Virus record (IMG/VR): IMGVR_UViG_3300049988_000124 | Span: 224,001-288,000 of that record | Source: a virus | Taxonomy: Duplodnaviria; Caudoviricetes | Direction: 5' to 3' (one strand) | DNA length: 64,000 bases | In this document: positions 2,937-11,084 of the stretch, piece after piece | Layout: every line of letters starts with the position of its first letter | How positions within the stretch are numbered: position 1 is the stretch's first letter | The notes under the pieces: model-generated | Told to the model about the DNA's origin: nothing | Database searches by the model: none | What the model saw: only the letters and a program-made list of their open reading frames with translations | Translations under genes and position numbers: made by a program

Positions 2937-3758
2937 TTATACAGAGCTGATCTGAACGTTACCGTAGAATCTACATGCAGAGAGATCGCTCATCATCTTA
3001 ACGTAGACGTCGCGGGAAACGGTTGCTTTCAGAACAACGTGAGTGGTCGAATTATCTTGACGATTGAGATGGATCATCCCGTGAATGGTGACCTCGTAGG
3101 AAGGATCCAATCCTATTTGACAATCCACCGATGTTACGAGACATGGACCGTTGCAGATCTCCTGCGCTTTCAGGATCACTGCATCGTAGTCGAGTTCTTC
3201 CATGTCCCAAGAAACTTCAAGGGGAACCTCTCTTGGAGCAGGTGGTGTATAGCCACGAGTGATCCCGGAAGTCATCATCGTAGCCAAGAAGGAGAATATG
3301 TCGTCGACATCTTCTTGCGGTTCATAACCGAGAAGATCAACTACGCGCTGATGATGTTCTTGCCACGCTTTGGGGATGATGTGGCGATGAACAACCATCC
3401 CTTCCGCGTGCGTCTTGGTGTGATCATAGTCGGCACATTCGAATGGTTTGAAATCATGGATGGCGCATTTACCCTCCACGAACCACCGACATACTCCGCG
3501 AGGATCGCTCGGAAAACAGTCGCCCGGCTCGTGGTTTACTACAGCTGGACTGAGGATCAACACCTTTGGCTCATCGCCACCATGGTAGTTACCATCTGGA
3601 CCAGCGAGGTCGACGTAATCCACCATGAGGTGATTGTCGAATAACTCCTTCTCCGTTAGACCAAGATGATCAGCGAGTGGTTTAATTTGGTCAGGGAGAA
3701 ACCACCCGGGCTTATACGAGCAAGCCGATTTACACACATCACACGAGCATTCAGACAT
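2937..3758 (-). CDS. YkgJ/UPF0153-like CxxCxxxC Fe-S or Zn cluster protein
   Basis: N-terminal CSCDVCKSAC plus CRWFVEGKCAIHDFKPFEC, matching the C.FL...C.IY..RP..C pattern of the family. Confidence 0.7.
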   Translation of the reverse strand: MSECSCDVCKSACSYKPGWFLPDQIKPLADHLGLTEKELFDNHLMVDYVDLAGPDGNYHGGDEPKVLILSPAVVNHEPGDCFPSDPRGVCRWFVEGKCAIHDFKPFECADYDHTKTHAEGMVVHRHIIPKAWQEHHQRVVDLLGYEPQEDVDDIFSFLATMMTSGITRGYTPPAPREVPLEVSWDMEELDYDAVILKAQEICNGPCLVTSVDCQIGLDPSYEVTIHGMIHLNRQDNSTTHVVLKATVSRDVYVKMMSDLSACRFYGNVQISSV

Positions 3759-3778
3759 GCGTTTCTCCTTTGTCTTTC

Positions 3779-4207
3779 TTAGACGCTATCACCGACCGCG
3801 TCTTTAGACTCAGTGTAAGTTGCTTGATGAGCGTGAGCTTTGAGCCAACTAGCGGCAAGAGAAAGAGGCATGGTCTCTGCGCGCGATGGGTAATCCAAGC
3901 CCCCTACCGGTAAACCAACACCGTTTAGTAGCCGCGCTGTTCGGTACGCATAGTTCAACTCTGGTACTAACCACGGTAGACCTTTACCCAGTAACATCGC
4001 TGCGTCAGTATAACCACCTACCTCACAGAGTTTGTAATAAGGATTATATTTGTTCAACCAGTCGGTGAGTTCATCAGAACCACCAAGAACGCGTTCTGGT
4101 TTTGGACCATGTAGTGCTTCAAAGGCGGTACGAAAATTATCAAGATTGTGACCGGTTTCTTTCTCCAGCATTTCAGCCGTGTTAAGAAGTAGCTGCGATC
4201 TCAACAT
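3779..4207 (-). CDS. Hypothetical protein
   Basis: 142 aa, abuts the phosphatase gene. Confidence 0.65.
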   Translation of the reverse strand: MLRSQLLLNTAEMLEKETGHNLDNFRTAFEALHGPKPERVLGGSDELTDWLNKYNPYYKLCEVGGYTDAAMLLGKGLPWLVPELNYAYRTARLLNGVGLPVGGLDYPSRAETMPLSLAASWLKAHAHQATYTESKDAVGDSV

Positions 4208-4948: not shown

Positions 4949-5968
4949 CTAAAGGGCAAAGCCCATTGTGGGACGGACCTTGGTTTGTGGTCCTGATTGG
5001 AAGAGCTGAGAAAGAGTTCTGGATTCACCCGGATCAGCAATACCCGCAGCCGCCGCTGCGCGCGTTACCTCTCTGGCAGTAAGCTCTCGGAAGATCAACG
5101 TCTCAAAACACCTTCCGGGGCGAATGAGTGCTGGATCAACCTCGTTCAAGTTAGTAAGGTTAGCGGTGAAGATAATCTTCTTCTTGGTCTGGACCAGTCC
5201 GTCACTGGCATTCAAGAGCTTACCCATGACCTTGTTGCCGCCTTCCCTGTCACGCAGGATAATGTCGGCATCCTCTACGACGAGTAGGTCGTAAGGCTTG
5301 TTCATGAACTCGATGAAGAACTTGTCCTTCTTCATGAGGTCCTCATCATACGTTACGGCAGCGGACAGATCGTTGCGGTTGATGAGGTCGCGCACGAAAC
5401 TGGTCTTACCACAACCAGGATCACCGATCATGAGAAGAACGTTTGCCGTGGAATCCAGGAACTGACGTTGGAACTCTGCAACAGAGGGTTGGATCCAAGG
5501 AACGTACTCGTCCTTCATGTCGTAATTGTGCGAAAGTTCAACCGTGGTCTTGTCAGGCTTACCGTCAACCGCGTGATACCAGTCTACGCTGTTGGACTTA
5601 GTTCGGGGATGCTTTTCCTCAAGGATACGGTGAACGCGAACAACTTCATCTATCTCCCCGTAAAGAATAACACTACCGGTCCGCTTTATTTCTTTCAAGG
5701 CTGTCGGGTAAGCGTAAATACTGACGACCAGTTCACTGAACTTAATGGTCAAGAATTGGCTGGTCGGTACTGTCTGAAGTGGCTGTCTTCCAACCGCTTC
5801 TGCGATAGACTTCATCAAGGCTGGAATGTTACCGAAGAATTCGATACGAGCAACACCCCTGAAGAGAAGGTCGATACCCAACTCCTCGGCCATCTTGGTC
5901 TCGATAATCGTCGCGACGCCAGAAACAGTATTGTACTGAGCAACATGTGTAAGATCCTGGTACAGCAA
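4949..5968 (-). CDS. AAA+ ATPase, paralogue 1
   Basis: Walker A GDPGCGKT, Walker B LLVVEDAD, LLNASDGL, and ALIRPGRCF (SRH). C-terminus PTMGFAL. Confidence 0.9.
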   Translation of the reverse strand: MLYQDLTHVAQYNTVSGVATIIETKMAEELGIDLLFRGVARIEFFGNIPALMKSIAEAVGRQPLQTVPTSQFLTIKFSELVVSIYAYPTALKEIKRTGSVILYGEIDEVVRVHRILEEKHPRTKSNSVDWYHAVDGKPDKTTVELSHNYDMKDEYVPWIQPSVAEFQRQFLDSTANVLLMIGDPGCGKTSFVRDLINRNDLSAAVTYDEDLMKKDKFFIEFMNKPYDLLVVEDADIILRDREGGNKVMGKLLNASDGLVQTKKKIIFTANLTNLNEVDPALIRPGRCFETLIFRELTAREVTRAAAAAGIADPGESRTLSQLFQSGPQTKVRPTMGFAL

Positions 5969-6001
5969 TGATATTCTCCTTCAAGGTGATGAGGGTTAGG
6001 G

Positions 6002-7027
6002 TTAAAGAGCGAAGCCCATTGTGGTGGAAGGCTTCGTGGTCGGGCCAGTGGAGAAAAGACGCGACAAGGTCGTGCGCTCTTCTGGCTCGGGAAGATTCAT
6101 CTCCGCTGCTACTGCTTTTGCCTCAATGAGAGACAATTCACGAAACATCAATGTCTCGAAACAACGACCTGGCCTGATAAGGGCGGGGTCAATCTCATTG
6201 AGACTAGTGATGTTAGCCGTCATCACGATCTTCTTCTTGAGTGAGATAAGACCATCACTGACGTTGAGGAGCTTGTTCATGGTCTTATTACCTTGCGTGC
6301 GATCGCGCAGCAAGACGTCTGCATCCTCGAGTACCAGAAGGTCATTATGACCCGTGACAAAATCAGCGAAGAACTGATCCGTCGCCATCATGTTGTCATC
6401 GTAGGTAACCGTGGTTCCCAGCTTCTGGCTATGAATAAGGTGCCGGATAAAGGTGGTCTTTCCGGTACCAGGTTCACCGAGTAGGAGGAGTATGCTTGCA
6501 TCGCTATCGATGTAGGATTGGACAAACGACGCAATACCCTGACCAATCCACGGGTAGAAACTATCACGAGGAGTGTTCTTGACTTCGAGAAGCACTGTTT
6601 TGGTCATCATTCCACGCTCAGTCATGAACGACCAGTGAACGTAGGTGTCTTGCTGTCGTACGTGCTTTCCAAGACGATCGTGAATTTTCTCGATTGTCTC
6701 ATATTCACCGTAGAGAAACACATGTGTATCTCTGTTGAAAGAATGGAACATCTTTCCTTGATGATCGATCTTGATCACCAATTTATCAAAGACGATCAAG
6801 AAACCGTCAAAGAAAGGTTCAGTGCGGATTAGTTTACTATCAACGTAACCGCAGATGAGATCGACGAGATCTTTGTACGTACCCTTGATCATTATCTCGA
6901 TGGACGCTATGAACAACTTCTCTACGTTTTGATCACTCATGATTTCACTGGCACGCAGGAAAGCCTGAGACATTCCAACACTGTTGGAAATACTAAATGA
7001 TGATTGAATGTTGGTCTTCATGATCAA
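6002..7027 (-). CDS. AAA+ ATPase, paralogue 2
   Basis: Walker A GEPGTGKT, Walker B LLVLEDAD, LLNVSDGL, and ALIRPGRCF. C-terminus TTMGFAL. Confidence 0.9.
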   Translation of the reverse strand: MIMKTNIQSSFSISNSVGMSQAFLRASEIMSDQNVEKLFIASIEIMIKGTYKDLVDLICGYVDSKLIRTEPFFDGFLIVFDKLVIKIDHQGKMFHSFNRDTHVFLYGEYETIEKIHDRLGKHVRQQDTYVHWSFMTERGMMTKTVLLEVKNTPRDSFYPWIGQGIASFVQSYIDSDASILLLLGEPGTGKTTFIRHLIHSQKLGTTVTYDDNMMATDQFFADFVTGHNDLLVLEDADVLLRDRTQGNKTMNKLLNVSDGLISLKKKIVMTANITSLNEIDPALIRPGRCFETLMFRELSLIEAKAVAAEMNLPEPEERTTLSRLFSTGPTTKPSTTMGFAL

Positions 7028-7034
7028 TACTTCC

Positions 7035-7358
7035 TTATTGATAGCAGAAGCGACTCGTAAGGTCGCTGCGGTCTATTGCCTGCTCAGGTGGTTTATTCTT
7101 GTAGGTAACGGTGTTGATCTTGACCAAGATTTGTTTACCGACCGGGAGTTCTTCTGGACCACTCGGACAACGCTTACTACCTAGCCTTTGTTCAGGCCAG
7201 CGCTTTCCATCCTCGGTTTCTAGGGAAACCCAGAACCGGCGGCTGAGACCACGAGCATCCACGACGGTGGCATTCACATTGATAGTGCTGGTCACTTGTC
7301 CCAAGTCACACGCCGACAATGTACCAACTAACAAGCACAGTGCGATGAGTTTTTTCAC
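7035..7358 (-). CDS. Hypothetical lipoprotein
   Basis: GTG start at 7358 with RBS. Lipobox VGTLSA|C. Confidence 0.7.
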   Translation of the reverse strand: MKKLIALCLLVGTLSACDLGQVTSTINVNATVVDARGLSRRFWVSLETEDGKRWPEQRLGSKRCPSGPEELPVGKQILVKINTVTYKNKPPEQAIDRSDLTSRFCYQ

Positions 7359-7439
7359 GTTACTTCCCTCTGTCTCATTACTAATCAATCGGTATCACTA
7401 TCTGGGTCACGACCCAGATAGTGATGTGTTGGTGGAAAT

Positions 7440-7808
7440 CTACTGCTTCTCTAGCAACCGTTTGATGTCTGCTAGTTGTTGTTTGAGGTTCTCTTGTTCC
7501 TCGTGGGTCCATGCATCTTTGTTTACATCAAGGAGTTGTACCAGTCGCACCACAATGAGGGGCACGATTAGGAACACACTAATCCCTGCTGTAACGAGTG
7601 CATCAAGTCGCCCTAGAAAGGTCACCGGACTAATGTCACCGTAACCGATCGTCGTGCTGGTCACTCCTGCCCAGTAGAAACTCTCACCCCATCCTCTACC
7701 TTCTGCGTGGACAAAGACTGCCGCACTAGAACAAAGGAGTACGATGTAGTAGCAAGCTACTTCTAAAAGACTGTCAGTGGCTGAGCGAAGTTTACTTAAC
7801 ATCACCAA
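7440..7808 (-). CDS. Two-TM potassium channel (KcsA-like)
   Basis: TM1, pore helix ESFYWAGVT, selectivity filter TTIGYGD, SPVTFLGR, TM2 and a C-terminal coiled coil. Confidence 0.92.
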   Translation of the reverse strand: MVMLSKLRSATDSLLEVACYYIVLLCSSAAVFVHAEGRGWGESFYWAGVTSTTIGYGDISPVTFLGRLDALVTAGISVFLIVPLIVVRLVQLLDVNKDAWTHEEQENLKQQLADIKRLLEKQ

Positions 7809-8085
7809 TTACTTTACTACATTTGGGCTTACCGTTCTCGTCCAAACGAGGAGTAATACCGTTCGCAAAGTTGTAGACTTCACCTCCTCGAGAATATTGA
7901 TGACTCTCATTGGTGGTGACATATTCACAACCAGTGTTTTTATCACGAACAGTTTGAACAGAACTTGCAGAACCGCCGCTAGTGTATACGTAGTCGGACT
8001 GAACGTTGCTCTCTACCGCTTGCGAGTTTGTTTTCCCGCAAGCAGTGATCAGCAGTACAGTGGTCAATACTAAAAGCTTCTTCAT
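7792..8085 (-). CDS. Hypothetical lipoprotein
   Basis: MKKLLVLTTVLLITA|CG lipobox. The ATG at 8085 is 4 nt after the GSP synthase stop. Confidence 0.75.
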   Translation of the reverse strand: MKKLLVLTTVLLITACGKTNSQAVESNVQSDYVYTSGGSASSVQTVRDKNTGCEYVTTNESHQYSRGGEVYNFANGITPRLDENGKPKCSKVIGDVK

Positions 8086-8089
8086 GTCA

Positions 8090-9244
8090 CTAATCCTGAA
8101 TGATGTGGGGAACAAACTGGGCGGTGTTACCCGTCACCAGTCCGTCTTCTCGAATACCCATGCCAGCTGGTTCACCGTCGATGACCCAAGAACCAATAAC
8201 GGGATACTTCCCGTCAAACTCAGGTAGGTCAAAGAGGTCCTGGTAGACGTGCCCCTCGGTGCCGTAGTCACCGCCGGTCTGGCCAATTGTCTGACCATTC
8301 TTGACGATGGTAACGTTTGCACCCTCACGACTGAGGAAGGGCTTACAAGCGTAGTTAGCGCTCGTGGTACTACCAATGGTTGCTGGTAGGAGATACTCGT
8401 TACTGGGATCAAAGGTGTAGAGAAGAGCCAGGATCGCCTTGTTGCTCCAGAGCATCTTCCAGATAGGCTCTAGCCACGTCGTCCGGGGTAGCTCCGCAAT
8501 CGCCTGCCTACCGTAGGCTTCGTTGGCCATCCACTCCCACGGGTGGAGCTTGAAGATCTGGTCGATCGGGTAATCTTCCAGATCCACGAATCGTCCCTCA
8601 GCAGTAATGCCGATATCGTCTATGGCGATGGGGAGCGTGGTAAAGCCAGCCTTCTCCGCAGTATCGCGCATGTAGGCCATGGTGACGGTGTCTTCACCGG
8701 TCGGCTCGACGACGTTGCTGAAGTAGAGCGGCTTATTGGGATCAAGCGCTGTTCGCAGATCTCGCCACTTGCCCACGAGCTTGTCGTGGATGCTGTTGAA
8801 CTGATCGTGCTGCGGGAAGACCTGCTCTTTCCATCGCCACTGGATCACGCTGGCCTCTAGGAGACTGGTTGGTGTATCGCAGTTAAACTCAAAGAGCTTA
8901 GGCGTTCCATTGGGCGCAAAACCAAAGTCGAAGCGACCAAAGTTCAGCGCCGGTGGCTCCTCATTCCAGGTATCGCGAATGGCTTGCTGGACGTACTCAG
9001 GAATCCCGAAGCGGTCCATCCAATCGTAGTCCTTACGCTCATTGACGAGCGCATCGCCTACTCGGATGAACAGCTCATAAAGCTCAGCCGTAGCAGTCTC
9101 AATGCGATCGATCTCGGAGCGAGTAAAGCTGTAATAGATTCCCTCATTCCAATAAGGCTGATTGTTCAGCGTGTGCCAGACAAGACCGTCCTGCTCCACG
9201 AGCTGACGCCAGTTGGGCCTGGCTGCTACGGCTAGACGCTTCAT
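8090..9244 (-). CDS. Glutathionylspermidine synthase family ATP-grasp protein (YgiC/YjfC-like)
   Basis: PYWNE.IYY.F, GRFDF, PKLFEFNCDTPTSLLEAS, IFKLHPWEWM, LEPIWKMLWSNKAIL, KPFLSREGANV, YPVIGSWV and GIRED. Confidence 0.93.
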   Translation of the reverse strand: MKRLAVAARPNWRQLVEQDGLVWHTLNNQPYWNEGIYYSFTRSEIDRIETATAELYELFIRVGDALVNERKDYDWMDRFGIPEYVQQAIRDTWNEEPPALNFGRFDFGFAPNGTPKLFEFNCDTPTSLLEASVIQWRWKEQVFPQHDQFNSIHDKLVGKWRDLRTALDPNKPLYFSNVVEPTGEDTVTMAYMRDTAEKAGFTTLPIAIDDIGITAEGRFVDLEDYPIDQIFKLHPWEWMANEAYGRQAIAELPRTTWLEPIWKMLWSNKAILALLYTFDPSNEYLLPATIGSTTSANYACKPFLSREGANVTIVKNGQTIGQTGGDYGTEGHVYQDLFDLPEFDGKYPVIGSWVIDGEPAGMGIREDGLVTGNTAQFVPHIIQD

Positions 9245-9247
9245 GAA

Positions 9248-9649
9248 TTACGAACTCCCCGAGAAGCCCCCACGGGCACTGGAACCAAAACCACCCCGGC
9301 TGACAGCAGCGCTGCGCGTTACCGTGGTTGATGCCGGAGCACGGTAGTAACTGCGACCAGGTGTCTGGCGAAAGCCACCACCACCCCGGTAGCGAGCCTC
9401 GCGAACACTGTCGCCGTAGTAAGGGATCGGTCCCCCACGATTGACGTAGTAAGGATAAAAGGCCCCGTTGCCCCCGTAGCCACGTCGACAATTGCTGTCG
9501 TCCACGCGCCGTCCCTGTTTGTCAACACAGACCGCTGTGTCACGGTCAGCGAACTCCTGGACATCATAGTCAGAAGTTGGACCACAAGCAGCAGTGACGA
9601 ACGCTAGCGCCAATGCTCCTGTGATCTTCAGATCGAAATCTTTAGCCAC
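9248..9649 (-). CDS. DUF1190/YgiB-like lipoprotein with Gly/Arg-rich tail
   Basis: Lipobox VTAA|CG, a Cys pair, and C-terminus VSRGGFGSSARGGFSGS. Lies directly upstream of GSP synthase, as in ygiBC/yjfMC. Confidence 0.8.
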   Translation of the reverse strand: MAKDFDLKITGALALAFVTAACGPTSDYDVQEFADRDTAVCVDKQGRRVDDSNCRRGYGGNGAFYPYYVNRGGPIPYYGDSVREARYRGGGGFRQTPGRSYYRAPASTTVTRSAAVSRGGFGSSARGGFSGSS

Positions 9650-9692
9650 CCTGTTATTCTCCTTCGTGGGTGTTTACTGAGCCAGATAGGTT

Positions 9693-10097
9693 TCAGGGAA
9701 CCATGCATCCGGCCTGGATGACACCGACGGCAAAGGCCATGCCGCCCACGTAGATGCCGCTGCTGGTGCAGTTGCTGGTGATCTTGGTACTGATCCCCTG
9801 CGAAGTCACCTGAACGATCCAGAACGTCAGTGACTGAACAACGAGAACGACCAGACCCCAAGCGACCATGTCGGAGAGGCTGACTGAGTGGCTGATGACG
9901 ACAGCGAAGGGAAGGGCAAAGCCCAGGACGCTGCCGATGAGCTGGATAGCAGCAGCTGTATTACCTTCACGAATGAGCGTGAACTCACGGTGCGGAGTGA
10001 TCATGACGTAGGCTAGCAGATAGCCCACCAGGAGAATGACGCCGATACCGAAGTATGCCAGGAAGTGAGGTAGTGTGTTAAACATGTGTTGGAACAT
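9693..10097 (-). CDS. DUF350 (YjfL-like) membrane protein
   Basis: Four hydrophobic segments and the family-typical ITPHREFTLIREGNTAAA motif. Confidence 0.88.
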   Translation of the reverse strand: MFQHMFNTLPHFLAYFGIGVILLVGYLLAYVMITPHREFTLIREGNTAAAIQLIGSVLGFALPFAVVISHSVSLSDMVAWGLVVLVVQSLTFWIVQVTSQGISTKITSNCTSSGIYVGGMAFAVGVIQAGCMVP

Positions 10098-10676: not shown

Positions 10677-11084
10677 TTAGTCTAGTTCCAGATCCTTCAG
10701 CCGAAAGGCTGGGGGTGGAACATAGAGACCATTTGGCTCAGTGTCTTCAGTTACAACACACCCAGCATTGATCACGCATCCTTCCCGAATAGTGACCCCT
10801 GGATAGATCGTTACCCCTGCCCCAATCCAACACCCACGCTCGATGACCACGGGGCGATGCCTGTCACCTGGTTTAGAACGTCTAAAGACGGAGCGACTGA
10901 TGTGGTGGGTGTTGGACATGATGATGCAACGAAAGGAGATGCGTACACCCTCCCCGATCTCGACGCCCCCTGTGGCGTCGATAAATCCCTCTCGGCTTAC
11001 ATACGCGCCTCGGCGAAGGATGAGACCTTGTGGATTGAGTACCGTGCAGCTGGCATCAATCTCAGCCCCCTCTTCAATCAACAT
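10677..11084 (-). CDS. Left-handed beta-helix acetyltransferase (maltose O-acetyltransferase-like)
   Basis: Hexapeptide repeats, including VEIGEGVRISFRCII and PVVIERGCWIGAGVTIYPGVTIREGCVINAGCVVTED. Confidence 0.85.
   Translation of the reverse strand: MLIEEGAEIDASCTVLNPQGLILRRGAYVSREGFIDATGGVEIGEGVRISFRCIIMSNTHHISRSVFRRSKPGDRHRPVVIERGCWIGAGVTIYPGVTIREGCVINAGCVVTEDTEPNGLYVPPPAFRLKDLELD

Follow-up and report, generated by a model that had tools for sequence, protein, structure and literature searches.

A probable captured sphingomonad operon in a jumbo phage, with an ATP-grasp ligase predicted to bind the tail of its lipoprotein neighbour

Six genes on the minus strand at positions 7035–10097 were analysed in a 64,000-nt stretch of viral DNA (hereafter the window), which corresponds to positions 224,001–288,000 of the virus record IMGVR_UViG_3300049988_000124. 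This record of 307,821 bp is rated 100% complete by CheckV; we label the whole phage genome G000, and comparison loci carry L-numbers. Four of the six genes, encoding a DUF350 membrane protein, a tailed lipoprotein (lipoprotein 1, LP1), an ATP-grasp ligase and a small K+ channel, very probably represent an operon that the phage captured from Sphingomonadaceae, as synteny and trees indicate. The ligase is predicted to bind the C-terminal tail of LP1, and on balance we think that it attaches a polyamine to the LP1 C-terminus, binding being what a complex model predicts and acyl-phosphate activation and transfer being what we infer.

The ligase (8090–9244, 384 aa, core gene 3) consists of a synthetase domain only, and its match to PF03738 (E 2.7e-129) covers positions 1–371 of 371. 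YgiC was the best match in the PDB (7uk8, E 2.5e-85), followed by YjfC (1.8e-73) and GspS (1.7e-31). Against PRK10507, the GspS model, the protein scored 142.5 bits, below the cut-off of 882, and it has no amidase domain. R104, D106, E119, N121, D123, K269, K301, R306 and R365 are intact and conserved in 79–80 of 80 aligned rows; the metal, ATP and acyl-phosphate roles that we assign to such residues are presumed from GspS. By these sequence comparisons the phage enzyme belongs with YgiC/YjfC, not with GspS, and peptide–polyamine ligase activity is predicted for it. YgiC and YjfC are peptide–spermidine ligases without glutathionylspermidine (GSP) synthetase activity, and their natural substrate is unknown (PMC11762307; PMC12568646).

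Directly before the ligase lies the gene for LP1 (9248–9649, 133 aa, GTG start, core gene 2), a YgiB/YjfM-like predicted lipoprotein with a lipobox cysteine (Cys22), a Cys41/Cys54 pair and an Arg/Gly/Ser-rich tail. It has 219 homologues, of which those with names are sphingomonad; C22, C41, C54, R118, G119, G120 and G122 are invariant. An earlier note on this DNA, made from the letters alone, had called LP1 a DUF1190 lipoprotein. The lipobox, the RGG(F/L)G tail and the place directly before the ligase agree with that name, but a Pfam search of LP1 gave no hit to DUF1190 (PF06693), and the match reached only 11.1 bits, in the tail region only, against a cut-off of 22; LP1 is thus a DUF1190-like positional analogue below the family score. 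The DUF1190 cluster nearest to LP1 in the Atlas, at 0.88, is a lead only.

We modelled the complex with the ligase, ADP/Mg and mature LP1 as input, using our own alignments. The ligase–LP1 model scored 0.82 and the best control 0.02. In calibration, 58 of the 80 solved pairs and 2 of the 110 mismatched ones attained this mark, counts that are only rough because our own alignments and the ADP/Mg ligands were used, unlike in the calibration. At least 92% of the contacts agreed between runs, and the partner had a predicted local distance difference test (pLDDT) value of at least 82. The predicted contacts involve the C-terminal 17 codons of LP1 (9251–9301), which comprise SRGGFG (residues 117–122) and a tether to Ser133. 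Residues 117–122 would pack on the ligase at about 208–217 and 239–245, and residues 128–133 also lie within the confident predicted interface. The ligase side of the whole interface includes 124–126, 177–185, 233–235 and 306–307, and conserved active-site motifs (124–126, 184–185, 306–307) fall inside its confident part. A sequence search turned up no relative of LP1 with a solved structure on which the model could have drawn.

A survey of partner lipoproteins pointed in the same direction. An RGG(F/L)G-type motif was present in 76 of 80 dereplicated partners and began 12–19 residues from the C-terminus in 72 of these 76 (16 in LP1); the last residue was Gly, Ser or Ala in 70 of the 80 and Glu in the remaining 10. 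Modification of the Gly/Arg-rich tail by the ligase, which the earlier note had listed among its options, is thereby supported at the level of prediction by the complex model, the partner survey and the fixed motif distance. According to the mechanism that we propose, the ligase would bind the RGGFG motif, and the tether of fixed length would bring the free C-terminal carboxylate to the ATP-grasp site. There, ATP would convert the Ser133 carboxylate to an acyl-phosphate, as happens in GspS to the terminal Gly of glutathione, and attack by a host polyamine would leave the lipoprotein amidated with polyamine. The polyamine would have to be host-derived, because neither spermidine synthase nor homospermidine-synthase-type (PF03435) families were found in G000. 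Phage Motura encodes a homospermidine synthase directly before its lipoprotein–ligase pair (see also PMC9992855).

A ubiquitin-like requirement for a C-terminal Gly-Gly was ruled out, as 109 of 120 members of the LP1 clade end in Ser. The model peptide in work on YgiC/YjfC peptide–spermidine ligation was reportedly triglycine.

The pairing of ligase and lipoprotein extends well beyond this phage. Viral ligases taken from cultured phages and from IMG/VR, where some contigs could belong to proviruses or to flanking host DNA, fell into 49 clusters at 70% identity. In 43 clusters a gene for a tailed lipoprotein lay within 2 kb of the ligase; a K+ channel was found in 9 and DUF350 in 9, and all four genes were present in only two, namely this phage and L127. 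We conclude that the ligase–lipoprotein pair, carried by many unrelated phage groups, is the core of the module and that the channel link is real yet optional. The gsp genes are annotated in more than 100 phage records.

Several points besides the rough calibration weigh against polyamination of the tail. The complex score expresses the model's confidence in binding, not in catalysis. LP1 terminates in Ser rather than Gly, and the small last residue of the partners is weak evidence because the tails are rich in Gly and Ser throughout. The class of the terminal residue showed no covariation with the ligase interface (1 of the top 20 columns, background 9%). With its lipobox and its probable disulfide pair LP1 should be exported, whereas the ligase needs ATP; the tail would have to be either modified ahead of export or retained inside. 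In many LP1 homologues a short hydrophobic stretch separates an acidic part from a basic tail, and LP1 itself has a net charge of -2 before and +8 after its middle segment, but that segment is too weakly hydrophobic for an ordinary transmembrane helix. Finally, the viral ligase loci L038, L042, L102 and L110 show no partner nearby, and about 80% of the viral ligase clusters have no channel.

Some of these points suit another explanation, which we nevertheless consider rather unlikely: the tail could serve for docking alone, as an anchor, or regulate the ligase as a pseudo-substrate, tethering the enzyme to a membrane complex or holding it off, with a small peptide or another protein as the true acyl donor. 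All of the lowest-error contacts come from LP1 117–122, on a surface apart from the catalytic motifs, and the last residue differs between partners (G, S, A or E) with no covariation in the ligase. For a pure anchor, however, the fixed distance of 12–19 residues to the C-terminus would be superfluous, and residues 128–133 are part of the confident interface, which takes in the TPT, ED and RE motifs.

Polyamination of the tail also has to be compared with the possibility, in our judgement quite improbable, that the ligase is a free-standing metabolic gene making, for example, glutathionyl-(homo)spermidine amid incidental neighbours. Its phage homologues are annotated as glutathionylspermidine synthase, and glutathionylhomospermidine has been proposed as the product of hss-gss clusters (PMC9992855). 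The ligase is, however, far nearer to YgiC/YjfC than to GspS, YgiC is devoid of GSP synthetase activity (PMC11762307), and a lipoprotein accompanies the ligase in those 43 of 49 viral clusters.

Sphingomonadaceae carry DUF350, LP1, ligase and a pore-only channel of 124–128 aa as one operon in the same order as the phage (L012, L013, L017 and L030–L034, for example in Sphingomonas koreensis and Allosphingosinicella), with 42–57% identity per gene between phage and host. The DUF350/YjfL-type membrane protein (9693–10097, 134 aa, core gene 1) passes the PF03994 gathering score (115 bits versus 26, E 2.8e-33) and is 47–56% identical to the Sphingomonadaceae operon copies and 65% identical to that of the related phage L028. 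In a quick tree, the phage ligase fell inside a mostly sphingomonad clade of 24 rows (Shimodaira–Hasegawa-like approximate likelihood ratio test, SH-aLRT, 99), as sister to Sphingopyxis (93); the channel tree was weakly supported. The same six-gene sequence is present in a separate assembly (L142), therefore the locus is no assembly artefact. The yjfL-yjfM-yjfC-like arrangement recognised before was confirmed, with DUF350, tailed lipoprotein and YgiC/YjfC-type ligase following each other in order, but the phage-borne system appears to be a captured host operon rather than a phage invention. Synteny in related phages is partial: in one of them the channel gene comes immediately after the ligase gene, and LP2 and LP3 (the two remaining genes of the six) are absent, whereas L028 (282 kb) has the trio DUF350–LP1–ligase without a channel beside it. 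Foreign GC content as a mark of recent transfer was rejected, the GC content at third codon positions (GC3) of the ligase (0.66) lying within that of the genome (0.63 +/- 0.08).

All six genes are intact open reading frames (ORFs), and the tight linkage described earlier applies to the three central junctions: 3 nt separate LP1 from the ligase, 4 nt the ligase from LP2, and LP2 and the channel overlap by 11 nt. The gaps between DUF350 and LP1 and between channel and LP3 measure 43 nt and 81 nt, respectively. LP2 (7792–8085, 97 aa) is a DUF6440 lipoprotein (PF20037, E 2.9e-8) with a GC3 of 0.41 compared to 0.66 in the ligase, and LP3 (7035–7358, 107 aa) is an orphan predicted lipoprotein without any Pfam, PHROG or NCBIfam match, for which a protein search returned LP3 alone. 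Since LP3 lies only 13 nt from the next gene, which codes for an AAA ATPase, and is thus nearer to it than to the channel, the right-hand edge of a 'six-gene module' is arbitrary. Neither LP2 nor LP3 had a homologue in any of the 141 comparison loci, and both are missing from the two related phages compared, so that the claim of six genes acting as one system was not supported. On the basis of this absence, the host synteny and the gene content of the relatives, we take the four captured genes as the unit. LP2 is a lineage-specific insertion between ligase and channel, which would have entered the captured operon later, and LP3 would be merely a neighbour. A promoter and terminator scan of the locus gave signals at chance level.

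It is accordingly very improbable that all six genes form one phage system acting through K+ flux against depolarising effectors or superinfecting phages. The tight central junctions, the canonical selectivity filter kept in two related phages and the recurrence of channels of three architectures beside the ligase in unrelated viral contigs would fit such a system. Against it stand the lack of conservation of LP2 and LP3, a channel link inherited from host operons, and the trio of L028 without an adjacent channel; moreover, the matches of LP2 to Cor/spanin profiles are weak (E 0.005–0.05) and lie mostly over the signal-peptide end, and those to Cor/Eex-type lipoproteins were likewise weak and N-terminal. 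The proposed role against anti-phage effectors or in superinfection exclusion is unsupported. That the operon is recently hitch-hiked host DNA without a role in infection, as its patchiness in hosts (16 of the 151 family genomes had a match to the ligase) and the loss of the channel in one relative might suggest, is largely refuted, because the operon is kept in three diverged phages, the pair is carried by many unrelated phage groups, and the trio measured against L028 has a proportion of synonymous differences (pS) of 0.61–0.78 versus a non-synonymous one (pN) of 0.12–0.22. As pN is far below pS, purifying selection acts on the trio in the phage lineage, and the repeated capture by unrelated phages implies that the module helps infection.

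The fourth captured gene (7440–7802, 120 aa, core gene 4, accessory across the family) encodes a pore-only channel with two transmembrane segments, and the minimal KcsA-like channel claimed before was corroborated by an Ion_trans_2 match (PF07885, E 4.1e-13) and a KcsA/MthK-type pore model. The model comprises M1, pore helix, M2 and a short C-terminal helix without an RCK (regulator of K+ conductance) domain, and its best fold matches were MthK and KcsA pores (E about 1e-3). The protein shows the M1–pore helix–TxGYGD filter–M2 layout of KcsA/MthK-type channels, and K+ conduction is predicted. It is 42–48% identical to the host operon channels, with which it has an N-terminal motif in common. 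In the host channels the filter reads S/T-T-GYGD and M2 contains a conserved His (L031:7576–7962; L017:6146–6520; L033:7548–7931), whereas this phage and its relative have the canonical TTIGYGD (residues 50–56, 7635–7655 of the window) and no M2 His. Of 50,697 phage records, 36 contain a channel of the pore-only family, and three phages with a channel of this type carry no ligase at all; a peptide-pattern search for the channel in viral contigs confirmed nothing. Three kinds of channel are linked to viral ligases: some consist of the pore alone, some add to it a long cytoplasmic domain that is RCK-like, and some are longer and of the voltage-sensor type.

Of the coupling to K+ suggested in the earlier note, the genetic part stood, the channel being truly linked to the trio as fourth gene of the host operon, while the link to flux is only inferred. 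Tentatively, the product of the ligase, or the drain on polyamines, might tune the linked channel and thereby inner-membrane K+ or potential during infection, a possibility that draws on gene linkage and on the block of the prokaryotic channel MthK by spermidine (PMC7335011). Less likely still, the operon could be a self-contained device in which the polyaminated LP1 tail, kept cytoplasmic by DUF350, blocks or gates the cognate channel; a lytic phage might then use its own canonical-filter copy of the channel to set host K+ and membrane potential. If true, such a device would involve a protein modification so far undescribed in bacteria and would regulate a channel in a new way.

The module resembles E. 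coli YjfL-YjfM-YjfC (yjfIJKLMC) and YgiB-YgiC (PDB 7UK6/7UK7, 7UK8/7UKA) in DUF350, a lipoprotein with an RGGFG-type tail and a synthetase-only GSP_synth ligase. Compared to YjfM/YgiB, LP1 is shorter, does not reach the DUF1190 cut-off and has Ser instead of GG at its end; compared to the yjf operon, the phage version is without YjfI, PspA and YjfK, is followed by a pore-only channel and is phage-borne. The bacterial 'third group' CesT/Tir-PspA operon described by Ravi et al. 2024 (PMC11237479), in which PspA and a ligand-sensing K+ channel accompany ligase, DUF350 and DUF1190, combines ATP-grasp ligase, DUF350, lipoprotein and K+ channel as the phage does. In contrast to that operon, the phage module has neither CesT/Tir nor DUF2491 next to the ligase, PspA was not found in the genome, and the channel lacks the intracellular ligand-sensing domain, as in the reduced sphingomonad operon. 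From that sphingomonad operon it differs by LP2 before the channel, the TTIGYGD filter and the missing M2 His. PspA (PF04012) was not found anywhere in the complete genome G000 with positive control genomes, which extends the earlier observation of its absence to the whole genome, and Band-7 was not found in a whole-genome search either. DUF350 has been reported near phage PspA (bioRxiv 10.64898/2026.10.24.761521).

Among cultured phages, Aeromonas phage LAh_9, Achromobacter phage Motura and Ralstonia phage RSL1 have a ligase with an adjacent tailed lipoprotein as here; an adjacent channel is found in LAh_9 and DSS3_VP1, and DUF350 in Motura. According to the tree these four phages represent separate acquisitions, and none has all four genes. 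With GspS, the phage ligase has the ATP-grasp catalytic motifs in common, and presumably the acyl-phosphate chemistry with a polyamine acceptor, but not the amidase domain.

Our literature search returned nothing on the four-gene phage form or on the lipoprotein tail as a substrate, and no functional study of a bacteriophage-encoded K+ channel. The present analysis contributes a complex model with controls, a constant spacing between motif and C-terminus, the inclusion of tails that end in Ser, and the derivation of the channel from a host operon. If LP1 is indeed polyaminated, this would name the natural target of the widespread YgiC/YjfC enzymes, for which structures have been solved and activity is known in vitro (PMC11762307), and would amount to an enzymatic C-terminal polyamination of a bacterial lipoprotein that does not need a Gly-Gly end. 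The 17-residue tail, its predicted docking motif and the fixed distance make the YgiC/YjfC substrate question directly testable, and the locus offers a bacteriophage K+ channel of 120 residues whose host origin can be traced and whose filter has changed.

The phage genome encodes virion proteins of the phiKZ type and split beta subunits of a multi-subunit RNA polymerase, as well as a two-piece transfer-messenger RNA (tmRNA; G000 302824–303274) and nine tRNA calls. We take the polymerase subunits, virion proteins and two-piece tmRNA to fit a phiKZ-like jumbo phage of an alphaproteobacterium. Two candidate ORFs for the nuclear shell protein chimallin had no match when compared with the PDB. Directly after LP3, two tandem paralogous AAA ATPases of 339 aa (4949–7021 of the window, minus strand; 42% identical, phrog_14322) are encoded, and a third, weak AAA paralogue lies near G000 98579–98941. 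Mycobacterium phage Phabba has a related AAA gene two genes past its pore-only channel. On the other side of the module, a short hexapeptide-repeat gene of the WcaF/maltose O-acetyltransferase type (10677–11084, minus strand) was detected, and such a gene likewise lies a few genes upstream of DUF350 in a related phage contig.

Some further viral loci showed variations in the ligase neighbourhood. The near-identical IMG/VR contigs L072–L085 have a voltage-sensor-type K+ channel gene between lipoprotein and ligase (about 3370–4065; in L072, 1130–1825). In DSS3_VP1 (L038:1996–4155), a channel with a long cytoplasmic domain lies directly upstream of the ligase; no tailed lipoprotein was seen in its flank, where genes at the record start were left untranslated. 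A 151-kb phage contig (L002:5001–6144) has a ligase frameshifted near residue 96, by error or decay, with lipoprotein and channel intact. At L041:2515–2904, L039:1741–2466 and L040:1822–2391, a lipoprotein that ends in GG and is without the RGGFG motif precedes the very divergent ligases of Bacillus phage PJN02, Delftia phage phiW-14 and Pseudomonas phage phiPMW.

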